A stretch of 61,040 nt of DNA from a virus (Duplodnaviria; Caudoviricetes). Of this stretch, positions 50,504-52,699 are shown one piece after another. Location: positions 1-61,040 of IMG/VR virus record IMGVR_UViG_3300033153_003434. One strand, 5' to 3'. Made by a program: the position numbers and the translations under genes. The notes below the pieces were generated by a model. It had not been told where the DNA came from, made no database searches, and worked only from the letters and a program-made list of their open reading frames with translations. Every line of letters begins with the position of its first letter. The stretch's first letter is position 1.

Positions 50504-52699
50504 ATGATGAATACAATGAATCCTAGTTTTAATCTTTTTAAAACATTAGATTTTTTAAGAGATTATATTAGTGATAACTATATTAGAATTAAAAATCATT
50601 TCTACGATAAAAACAGTGGTAAAAAAATTAGATATTTTATTACATTGAATTATTATATTAACAGAGAAGATGTTAAAATAATTAATAAATTCGTAAAAGA
50701 TTTTAAAAATATAACTATTGAATATAATTATATAGATGAAGAGGATAGAAGTAGTCGTTCATTACACGAGTCTTTAGTCGGTGTTCAACCAATGAGTGCA
50801 CCAAGAGGTAGTGCTTATACAACAAGATTTACATATGGTAATGAAAGTGTTCAACAAGTCGATGAACCTGAACCCGAATCAGTAGAACCGATGCCTGAAA
50901 GAAGTAAGTATGAAGATTTTGTGCTCACTAAACCAAGACCAAAGAAGAAAAAGAAAATGAGTTGGGATGCATCTTGGGGTCGTGGTAGTCGCACTACATA
51001 TCGCACCCCATCAAACGCTACACATGATAATCAATATGTTATAAATATCGTTGTAACTGAAAGTGTTGCAGAAAATATTAATGTTGGTGATAATATATCA
51101 ATGATAAACCATATAACACTTGAAAATAATGTTGTTGGTATTATATTATATAAAGAATCAACTATGGCAGGTACAAAATTATTAGTGCGTGAAACAAGGA
51201 GAGGTTCTTTAAATCCTGGTGTGCCTATTATACTTCCAAATGTTGGAAGTGTTGTGATTGGAAATTTATGGAATAATGAACTTGGAAGACATTTTCAAAT
51301 ACAACCAGAACCAGAACCAGAACCAGAACCAGAACCAGAACCACTAAGCTATATGACTGTTAGTGCGGAAATGTATCAAGATTTAAGGGCTGTTAATGGT
51401 AATAATGCAAGAGAAGAATTATACAGCATTGCTCGTGCAGAAGGTCATAATAGAATTAACATTGTTAATGGGTTTGGTAATGATATTATTGAAACATTAG
51501 AAGTACCAGAAACAATTACGATAACAGGTGTGATTGCACGTGATGGTACAAGAACAAATAATGGCATAATATATCCACCATTATATGCTTCTGAAACAGG
51601 TGATGTTAATGTTACAATACCACCAATAGAAAACCATGATAATTACTGGTTTCCTAACAACCCAAGTGCCACAGAAGCTGTTATAAATGAAGGTACAACA
51701 ACAAGTCAACAAATAGCTGATACTATGGCTGAACAAATTACAGACGAAATAAATCAAGAAGTATTAAATAGAGTTTCGGAAGATGCTGATAGAACACCAT
51801 ATACAAATTCAACTGTTATAGATATTAATGAAGGTCGTGAAGTTGGTGTGAGTGTGCGAGGTGGTGGCGATACTGATGTTAATAATGATAATAATGATAT
51901 AATATATGATGGTATTCGTATAGTTTATTTAGAAAGTGTGAATGATGTTGATATAGAAACATTCCCAATAGAATCTATTATATATCATATAGATGGTACT
52001 ACTAAAGCAAAAATATTATATAAAGAAAATGCTAGTAGAGGTGTTAAATTAGTAGTTGAAGATATAGAATCGAACGGTCTTCATACTGATATGGAAGTTT
52101 ATATTGGAAGTAATGTAGAAAATCGTTTAAAAGTTAGAAATATGTGGAATTTTTCCCGACACACTGCAAGATTTATTTTTATACACACACTACAAATAGA
52201 AAGACGACAAAATTCTCAAGAATTAAATATGTATGGGATGACATATAGAGTTCCAACATCTGTTGAAACAATAGTAACACGAACACAAGAACCAACACAC
52301 GACCCTGGTATATTTTATACACCTTATATACCTTTACAAGTAAGTAGTGCCAACGAACCATTGTTAACAGCTAACACAACAGGAATGTCAAGGGAAGAAT
52401 CAACAAGTTATATTCAAAGTTTACGAGATAGATATAATAATAGAACATATAGTAATAGTAGTGTTAGTAGTAGTAATAATAGTAACGAAGGAGTAGGTTA
52501 CGATTTTTCAGAACTTAGAGATAGGATTATAGAAGAACAACATAGAATATCAGGAACTAATAGACATAATTCTGAAAGAGATGATATTGTAGAAGCTGCA
52601 TCACTAGGTTATTTTTCAAGAGAATCACTTATAAACAATTTATATGGTAGTACATCTACAACAGTTAATCCAACAACAAACACAACAGAAACAACATAG
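50504..52699 (+). CDS. Mosaic protein containing short gp23 (capsid)-, gp21 (protease)- and gp20 (portal)-like motifs; not an intact capsid protein
   Basis: VGVQPMSAPRG, QDLRAVNG, EQITDEINQEVL, DPGIFYTPYIPL, TNNGIIYP, GVSVRGGG, DNYWFP separated by low-complexity linkers. Confidence 0.65.
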   Translation: MMNTMNPSFNLFKTLDFLRDYISDNYIRIKNHFYDKNSGKKIRYFITLNYYINREDVKIINKFVKDFKNITIEYNYIDEEDRSSRSLHESLVGVQPMSAPRGSAYTTRFTYGNESVQQVDEPEPESVEPMPERSKYEDFVLTKPRPKKKKKMSWDASWGRGSRTTYRTPSNATHDNQYVINIVVTESVAENINVGDNISMINHITLENNVVGIILYKESTMAGTKLLVRETRRGSLNPGVPIILPNVGSVVIGNLWNNELGRHFQIQPEPEPEPEPEPEPLSYMTVSAEMYQDLRAVNGNNAREELYSIARAEGHNRINIVNGFGNDIIETLEVPETITITGVIARDGTRTNNGIIYPPLYASETGDVNVTIPPIENHDNYWFPNNPSATEAVINEGTTTSQQIADTMAEQITDEINQEVLNRVSEDADRTPYTNSTVIDINEGREVGVSVRGGGDTDVNNDNNDIIYDGIRIVYLESVNDVDIETFPIESIIYHIDGTTKAKILYKENASRGVKLVVEDIESNGLHTDMEVYIGSNVENRLKVRNMWNFSRHTARFIFIHTLQIERRQNSQELNMYGMTYRVPTSVETIVTRTQEPTHDPGIFYTPYIPLQVSSANEPLLTANTTGMSREESTSYIQSLRDRYNNRTYSNSSVSSSNNSNEGVGYDFSELRDRIIEEQHRISGTNRHNSERDDIVEAASLGYFSRESLINNLYGSTSTTVNPTTNTTETT
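51305..51343 (+). repeat. In-frame tandem repeat (CCAGAA)x6 encoding PE linker
   Basis: Read directly from sequence. Confidence 0.9.

Follow-up and report, generated by a model that had tools for sequence, protein, structure and literature searches.

The sequence described here, hereafter the window, is the entire IMG/VR record IMGVR_UViG_3300033153_003434, a stretch of 61,040 bases (29.7% G+C) from a virus of the Caudoviricetes; CheckV estimates the completeness of the record at about 50%. A single open reading frame (ORF), P0001, occupies positions 50504-52699 of the plus strand, where 731 codons stay open without interruption; the alternative frames across it reach at most 60 codons each. 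A preliminary description of the locus presented this ORF as one unbroken frame encoding a 731-residue patchwork of short motifs from the major capsid protein (MCP; gp23 in phage T4), the prohead protease (gp21), and the portal, and the ORF list and the translation bear out both the frame and the coordinates of all the motifs it quoted. P0001 is made of duplicated and incomplete MCP pieces that lie behind a new N-terminal domain and are joined by slippage-prone linkers.

The capsid-protein pieces are recognized by curated families and by purpose-built profiles. P0001 passes the threshold of the Pfam family Gp23 (PF07068) with 51.7 bits (cut-off 24.4, E=1.2e-13), the match being split over three short stretches, and the PHROG family phrog_138 (“major head protein”) matches it at 5.3e-13. 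Among PDB sequences at E<=1, the sole matches are four T4 gp23 entries, each of them colinear with P0001 in three stretches (query residues 91-117, 286-314, and 599-619). Hidden Markov models (HMMs) for gp23, gp21, and the portal were built from the head-gene loci of 11 annotated T4-like phages; the 11-sequence gp23 HMM scores P0001 at 38.5 bits, a value that none of 3000 global and none of 3000 local shuffles reached. The gp23 islands that the preliminary description matched to T4 are thus real and stand in their native order. A second MCP profile was built from 29 of 122 listed MCPs (the closest 18 and 11 spread further down the list) and scores 72.1 bits over seven stretches of P0001. These include a strand motif (residues 90-119), the insertion domain (170-264), a strand with the spine helix (285-319), a second helix (397-435), a second insertion domain (497-549), and a C-terminal strand (597-619).

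Large parts of a capsid protein are nevertheless missing. The matched stretches cover 196 of the 464 profile positions (42%), namely 81-110, 119-208, 251-303, and 402-424; the 268 unmatched positions are 1-80, 209-250 (the E-loop return and the next strands), 304-401 (the A-domain region), and 425-464. P0001 therefore lacks a complete, continuous MCP core, whereas the true MCPs P0004 and P0005 align to the profile as a single stretch of about 430 positions. Near the C terminus of P0001, the motif GYFSRESLINNLYGS has a weak profile score (0.3 bits, reached by 47 of 1000 shuffles).

Structure prediction gives a similar picture. AlphaFold2, run with a 32-sequence alignment, models P0001 with a predicted local distance difference test score (pLDDT) of 51.1 and a predicted template modelling score (pTM) of 0.27, and the model is confident only at residues 174-260 and 283-335; the first copy of the insertion domain is its best-modelled portion. 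Foldseek finds no match to this model in the PDB at E<=0.001, and in the VIA-wide comparison only the beta-barrel at residues 172-262 is matched (best Z 8.2). The ESM Atlas's own model of P0001 is similarly poor (pTM 0.23, pLDDT 0.46). As a control, the true MCP P0005, modelled with the identical 32 sequences, reaches a pLDDT of 75.9 and a pTM of 0.67 and matches T4 gp23 at E=4e-19. Prediction thus returns the disconnected fragments that had been anticipated for P0001 while the control MCP folds, and no HK97 fold is present in the P0001 model, although a poor model is no proof of the fold's absence. Both the partial profile coverage and the fragmentary model agree with the earlier view that this is not a normal capsid protein.

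Two of the capsid-derived units occur twice. The two copies of the insertion domain are 32% identical over 81 residues (E=1.9e-5), and their duplication has left a trace in the DNA (repeat family D4; 44 nt, 73% identity). The spine helix is likewise doubled, with two separate matches to the 29-MCP profile; an island model of the second helix (X5) has T4 gp24 and an MCP-like ORF as its top matches (E about 0.01). The low-complexity linkers between the islands are real, and the PE tract is encoded by a perfect hexanucleotide array, a sequence prone to changes in length. This repeat sits where close MCP relatives carry the E-loop return and beta strands. An MAFFT alignment, judged by eye, sets the SKYED... 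segment of an earlier linker on the N-arm of the MCPs. The coordinates of these features are collected in the table below. For the N-terminal domain, Pfam, PHROGs, NCBIfam, and PADLOC give nothing meaningful; the ESM Atlas holds no usable feature match to it, and the structures retrieved there are unrelated Rossmann-like pieces (template modelling score at most 0.51). Residues 330-470 are likewise without a match in the ESM Atlas.

Table. Features of the P0001 gene and its upstream promoter-like site (aa, amino acids of P0001; positions are those of the window)
Feature	Positions	Strand	Evidence and remarks
Promoter-like site TTGACA-N17-TATATT	49211..49239	+	Closest one upstream of the dense ORF run 49238-53507 that holds the P0001 gene
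Whole ORF P0001, 731 aa	50504..52699	+	Purine-rich, AGG-containing stretch about 10 nt 5' of the start; stop of the preceding ORF 12 nt before that stretch
Lineage-specific N-terminal domain, aa 1-80	50504..50743	+	Part most conserved across the three family members; no known family
MCP island 1, aa 90-119, VGVQPM...RF.YGN strand motif	50771..50860	+	17.8 bits, 29-MCP profile positions 81-110
P/E-rich linker, SKYED... segment, and lysine run, aa 120-151	50861..50956	+	S134-K135-Y136-E137 identical in 3 of 3 members
Insertion-domain copy 1, aa 170-264, beta-barrel with WNNELGR at its end	51011..51295	+	29-MCP profile; model pLDDT about 70-94
Perfect microsatellite AACCAG x 6.8 encoding the PE repeat	51303..51343	+	Repeat scan
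MCP island 2, aa 285-319, strand and beginning of spine helix (SAEMYQDLRAVNG...)	51356..51460	+	13.3 bits, 29-MCP profile; pLDDT 84-89
Family-conserved unit ITITG...NNGIIYPPLY..TGDV...NYWFPN, aa 336-388	51509..51667	+	No significant profile score in P0001
Second spine-helix-like island, aa 397-435	51692..51808	+	8.6 bits, 29-MCP profile
GVSVRGGG region, aa 435-473	51806..51922	+	Resembles prohead protease gp21 around its GVSsRG motif
Insertion-domain copy 2, aa 471-549, intragenic duplicate of copy 1	51914..52150	+	Profile stretch 497-549; modelled poorly
MCP island, aa 597-619, HDPGIFYTPYIPLQV, C-terminal P-domain strand motif	52292..52360	+	16.8 bits, 29-MCP profile
MCP C-terminal motif GYFSRESLINNLYGS, aa 702-716	52607..52651	+	Pairwise match to MCP P0004 residues 547-561, E=0.004

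P0001 belongs to a very small family. When 1.84 billion representative proteins were scanned without filters, four were hit, the MCPs P0004 and P0005 and two relatives, P0002 (416 residues) and P0003 (333 residues), each of which has the N-terminal domain of P0001 and is the representative of its own 50%-identity cluster. A word-indexed homologue search with P0001 had no hit at E<=0.001 among 8000 scored candidates, and the same kind of search with P0002 returned P0002 alone. No related locus was found with P0001 or alignment A1 in viral contigs or in JGI metagenome contigs, and tblastn with P0001 against the phage collection gave no match. Residues 1-149 of P0001 are 48% identical to P0002, and the N-terminal domain holds most of the invariant columns; the remainder is barely alignable. 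Common to all three members are the N-terminal domain, a first copy of the strand motif, the P/E-rich linker, the invariant SKYE segment, and a second copy of the strand motif. An intact VGVQPM occurs once per member, in the first strand-motif copy of P0001 and in the second copy of P0002 and P0003. P0002 has neither the insertion domain nor any of the C-terminal half. Relatives differing in the content and order of their islands, which the preliminary description had named as a thing to look for, are thus seen in the alignments of P0002 and P0003.

The relatives also show how readily short islands can be misassigned. Residues 154-311 of P0003 form one unbroken MCP-profile alignment of 158 residues (35.6 bits), which traverses ...RNNGRRYDELTGEV..., the counterpart of islands that had been called gp21-like and portal-like in P0001. 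Short islands were scored with small HMMs of our own, with the HMMER filters off, and judged by our own controls in place of curated thresholds; the controls were 2692 pieces of 80 residues cut from 931 ORFs in the window and in the retrieved loci, once 16 true family members had been removed. By these measures the P0003 stretch alone scores 5.9 bits as MCP (reached by 4 of 2692 controls), 6.6 bits as portal (1 of 2692), and 3.2 bits as gp21 (11 of 2692). One short stretch fits three models, and such matches therefore cannot assign an origin. P0002 scores 6.8 bits against the portal HMM, a value that one of the 2692 controls reaches.

In P0001 itself, the gp21-like islands proposed earlier stand in part. 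Residues 425-490, which contain GVSVRGGG, score 11.8 bits against the gp21 HMM, reached by 0 of 1000 shuffles and 0 of 2692 controls (highest control 7.1); the likeness is to the GVSsRG motif region of T4 gp21 (PF03420) and falls at residues 435-473. Conversely, a model built from two sequences of this island (X3) was run against 715 six-frame ORFs from 13 T4-like loci; its top four matches are gp21 proteins (best E=4.5e-4), and the result is unchanged after addition of the 29 MCPs. For the other proposed gp21 island, at residues 325-395, the score of -1.1 bits is equalled or exceeded by 139 of 1000 shuffles and lacks significance. The Pfam family Peptidase_S77 (PF03420) has no match in the record at E<=1, nor in P0001 and five cut-out windows at E<=10. 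Unlike T4 gp21, P0001 has intervening sequence that is not protease-like, and GVSVRGGG has Val in place of the second Ser of the gp21 consensus; the motif of P0002 reads GVSVRGVG. That second Ser is presumably the gp21 nucleophile, Ser and His being assumed here to have the catalytic roles, and in the GVSVRG region no His is invariant across the three family members. By-eye alignments offer three differing MCP origins for GVSVRG (QDLRAVHG, RRGxGN, and VGVQPMN), and no profile supports any of them.

The remaining islands of the proposed patchwork fare less well. Against the portal HMM, the DNYWFP region (residues 325-395) scores -1.2 bits, which 21 of 1000 shuffles and 427 of 2692 controls equal or exceed, and MSREEST...RDRYNNR scores 3.1 bits, matched or bettered by 3 of 1000 shuffles and by 28 of 2692 controls; neither is significant. 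The Pfam family Portal_T4 (PF07230) has no match in the record, nor in P0001 and the five cut-out windows at E<=10. A model of the second portal-like island (X4) has no portal among its significant matches. GYFSRESLINNLYGS with GYFSRE, also read as portal-like, instead aligns to the C terminus of the MCP P0004 (E=0.004), and GYFSRE is part of the MCP C-terminal motif. For the supposed terminase-like DDIVEA, the best match to the window's own terminase has E=1.9. The possibility that P0001 is a polyprotein for a T4-type protease was rejected as well: it holds 8 [LI]xE sites where 8.9 +/- 2.6 are expected, and at least as many are present in 1395 of 2000 shuffles. A patchwork of three proteins is thus not upheld in the form first given; most islands are derived from the MCP, and P0001 has a single significant gp21-like island.

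The P0001 gene lies outside the structural part of the window. The motif TATAAATA, which we take to be the T4 late-promoter motif, occurs 30 times against 25.2 +/- 5.0, and so is not enriched overall. Of its 25 plus-strand copies, 13 lie at most 70 nt upstream of 10 gene starts, mostly structural, in a block that extends from 2.7 kb to 45076. No copy is found within 100 nt upstream of the P0001 gene, which stands outside this block and away from the position of a late head module. From 45.6 kb on there are sigma-70-like sites; those matching at least 11 of 12 positions number 15, against 5.5 +/- 2.5 (maximum 14) in shuffles. The exact form TTGACA-N17-TATATT has seven copies, at 45597, 49211, 53497, 58496, and 59949 on the plus strand and at 29065 and 29210 on the minus strand. 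The earlier placement of the gene among sigma-70-type promoters is borne out by the excess in the strict count and by the site at 49211, which heads the ORF run of the gene. Judged by their promoter motifs, the genes of the window seem to fall into two transcription classes.

The neighbors of the P0001 gene encode a guanylate kinase, an S-AdoMet (S-adenosylmethionine) lyase-like protein, a homing endonuclease, and a phosphoesterase. The S-AdoMet-lyase-like gene is located 2.8 kb upstream of P0001, at 47004-47687; its product of 227 residues matches PF23780 (E=2e-6; 28.2 bits at a cut-off of 28) and, weakly, a PHROG labelled as methyltransferase, and may represent an early gene of the anti-restriction type. 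Homing-endonuclease-like genes are found at 25538-26266, 30558-31478, 53560-54471, and 58865-59965. Besides P0001, no gp21, portal, or MCP match occurs among the window's 192 six-frame ORFs. The window does encode a T4-like large terminase with about 30% identity to the terminases of Vibrio and Serratia phages, and no close viral contig was found by means of it. This terminase gene (16373-18751) encodes 792 residues, with PHROG matches in two stretches, and may carry an insertion; T4 gp17 is presumably about 610 residues long. There are also four tail-sheath paralogues, at 19352-21715, 23238-25541, 31475-33310, and 34057-36540 (PHROG 23, E 1e-7 to 1e-46).

The closest source of the MCP pieces is a clade of MCPs from uncultured AT-rich phages (P0005-P0016), whose insertion domain aligns with that of P0001 over YKE...G.KLL...WNNELGR (E=3e-9). 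In contrast to P0001, these are full MCPs of 480-490 residues that fold like gp23 (as judged from the P0005 model) and are encoded directly after gp21 and a scaffold gene. Three IMG/VR fragments of this clade were examined (L016-L018; G+C 23-28%), and in each of the three a normal gp21 (E 1e-41 to 4e-52) precedes a full MCP; in related phages the protease, scaffold, and MCP genes are kept together. No member of the P0001 mosaic family was found in the three fragments. In L018, the MCP match extends over two overlapping frames (4008-4346 and 4238-5242) with profile positions of about 87-176 missing; this may be a true capsid gene that is disrupted by a frameshift or an inserted element, or one that was misassembled. 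The sheath paralogues of L017 match those of the window at 26-34% identity; both sequences thus have several sheath genes, which seems characteristic of the lineage. Two endonuclease genes of the window resemble those of L016 and L018 (at most 54% identity, over short stretches). The window gene at 33337-34014, whose product of 225 residues has no family match, has homologues in L017 and L018 that stand directly upstream of the prohead protease gene; in the window another sheath gene occupies the slot that follows. The product may serve in the head core or in assembly, with its gene moved away from the head genes in the window phage.

On balance, P0001 is probably an accessory paralogue derived from an MCP, under selection and non-canonical, and not the MCP that forms the shell; the real head module would lie in the unsampled half of the genome. 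The 731 open codons at 30% G+C and the same architecture in P0002 and P0003 suggest selection and not an assembly error. Like T4 gp23 and gp24 (PF07068; an HK97 fold with an insertion domain), P0001 passes the Pfam threshold and has a strand motif, a beta-barrel insertion domain, a QDLRAV spine helix, a DxGIFYxPY strand, and a C-terminal motif in the native order, and like gp24 it would be a capsid-gene paralogue. Unlike gp23 and gp24, it covers 42% of the profile, has no detectable A domain, and has duplicated both the insertion domain and the helix; it also has a new N-terminal domain of 80 residues and PE and N/S/T linkers, yields no HK97 model, and is encoded outside a late head module.

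Such a protein could have its origin in a surplus copy of the capsid gene that was reshaped as parts of it were duplicated or deleted and repeats expanded, possibly with uptake of a scrap of the prohead-protease gene, which adjoins the MCP gene in related phages. The differing order of islands among the relatives would then reflect differential decay of duplicated units, as a reading by eye of P0001 and P0002 suggests. Sigma-70-type promoters would drive transcription of the P0001 gene along with that of accessory genes, either before the late structural genes or separately from them. In the protein, the N-terminal domain may be the acting part and bear a flexible tail of capsid-protein surface pieces, and this tail may bind whatever normally contacts the capsid protein, either the assembling head or a host factor.

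Several observations weigh against this account. A separate true MCP is assumed, not seen, since by CheckV's estimate the window holds only about half of the genome. Outside the MCP islands the P0001 alignment is only three sequences deep, which may partly explain the low confidence of the model. The two relatives may be incomplete sequences. P0002 has two gp21-like islands in the right order, whose scores of 8.7 and 7.2 bits no control among 2692 reaches, and one of them holds NRNGRIYP, identical to the consensus of our own gp21 HMM. Descent from an MCP does not explain these islands, and a scrap of a protease gene may therefore be present in the family. The promoter classes are consensus matches, and a loose sigma-70 scan near the gene is at chance level (48 against 40.8 +/- 6.0).

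Other observations would fit a real MCP gene as well: P0001 is the sole Gp23-family match in the 61-kb record, and a homing endonuclease gene lies 0.9 kb downstream, much as endonuclease genes flank the MCP genes in 6 of 11 annotated T4-like loci. P0001 would then be a true but extremely diverged MCP in which the HK97 core still forms, with the extra domains and linkers accommodated on its surface as insertions. The native order of the islands, from the strand motif through to the C-terminal motif, and the position of the gene downstream of terminase, sheath, and tube genes, as in T4, are in keeping with this. We consider it unlikely, given that 268 of 464 profile positions are unmatched (the A-domain region included), that a perfect, expandable microsatellite stands at a beta-strand position of the relatives, and that the model is fragmentary where the control MCP folds. 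Moreover, P0001 has no adjacent protease or scaffold gene, whereas the relatives keep gp21, scaffold, and MCP together; no TATAAATA precedes the gene; and P0002 does without the insertion domain and the entire C-terminal half. At the other extreme, P0001 could be the decaying relic of a duplicated head-gene cassette, functionless today. The complementary loss of duplicated motifs, the microsatellite, the N/S/T tracts, and the missing core segments are all hallmarks of erosion, and the family is tiny. Decay of this kind is nonetheless quite unlikely in view of a 2.2-kb open frame in a 30% G+C genome, an N-terminal part (residues 1-149) that stays 48% identical between members otherwise barely alignable, the dense packing of the genes in the run, and the purine-rich stretch shortly before the start.

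If P0001 does have a function, it might be that of an immune decoy, made before the late genes, whose tethered linear motifs of conserved head proteins occupy, without triggering them, host sensors specific for the capsid or other head proteins. Short conserved motifs persist in all three members, whereas insertions, deletions, and duplications freely alter the sequence between them; much of P0001 is predicted without confident structure; the gene belongs to a sigma-70-type accessory block, 2.8 kb downstream of the S-AdoMet-lyase-like gene; and significant gp21-like motifs occur in P0002 and, as a single island, in P0001. A decoy is improbable all the same: sensor binding is purely hypothetical, with no sensor known for the host, portal- and terminase-likeness is not significant in P0001, and it is the N-terminal domain, not the motifs, that is conserved best. 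PADLOC gave no match on P0001, the passages of literature that a search turned up hold no precedent for a capsid-derived decoy, and three family members among 1.84 billion representative proteins are unlike a widely useful counter-defence. Alternatively, the insertion domain and the spine helix could dock on capsid subunits and block growth of the lattice, so that P0001 would act as a dominant-negative poison or modulator, either of the capsid of a co-infecting relative or of the phage's own capsid, to tune assembly. Both confidently modelled parts are indeed MCP parts (insertion domain and spine helix), and P0001 appears unable to complete an HK97 core. This explanation is very unlikely, as early co-expression would endanger the phage's own head unless the protein were specific, docking is hypothetical, and T4-type [LI]xE processing sites are not enriched (8 against 8.9 +/- 2.6). 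Decoy and assembly-poison functions would fit the anatomy and the promoter context, but even taken jointly they are unlikely.

A related and likewise unlikely idea is that P0001 is a molecular mimic, expressed from early-type promoters, in which a flexible string of linear motifs retained from the phage's own head proteins is carried on a conserved N-terminal handle. The motifs so displayed would be the capsid strand motif, the spine helix, the insertion domain, and the protease-like GVSVRG. In each family member the VGVQPM strand motif overlaps what we take to be the Gol region of T4 gp23, the trigger of the Lit protease; this likeness is a lead only, as no Lit-like gene, host, or interaction is known here. 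If P0001 is a mimic, it would either sequester host sensors of head proteins or cap and poison the capsid assembly of competing relatives, and the fast gain, loss, and duplication of its beads would reflect an arms race.

Short likenesses to head proteins call for caution in any such case, since one motif can fit several families simultaneously, as the P0003 stretch does for MCP, portal, and protease. Capsid-gene paralogues are already known as vertex proteins. What is unusual here is an internally duplicated, half-eroded capsid derivative that is set on a new conserved domain and encoded among accessory genes, not head genes. P0001 would show how a phage can reuse a spare structural gene through duplication, deletion, and repeat slippage, and it is a concrete candidate with which to ask if phages employ mimics of their own capsid protein, be it against host sensing or in competition between phages.

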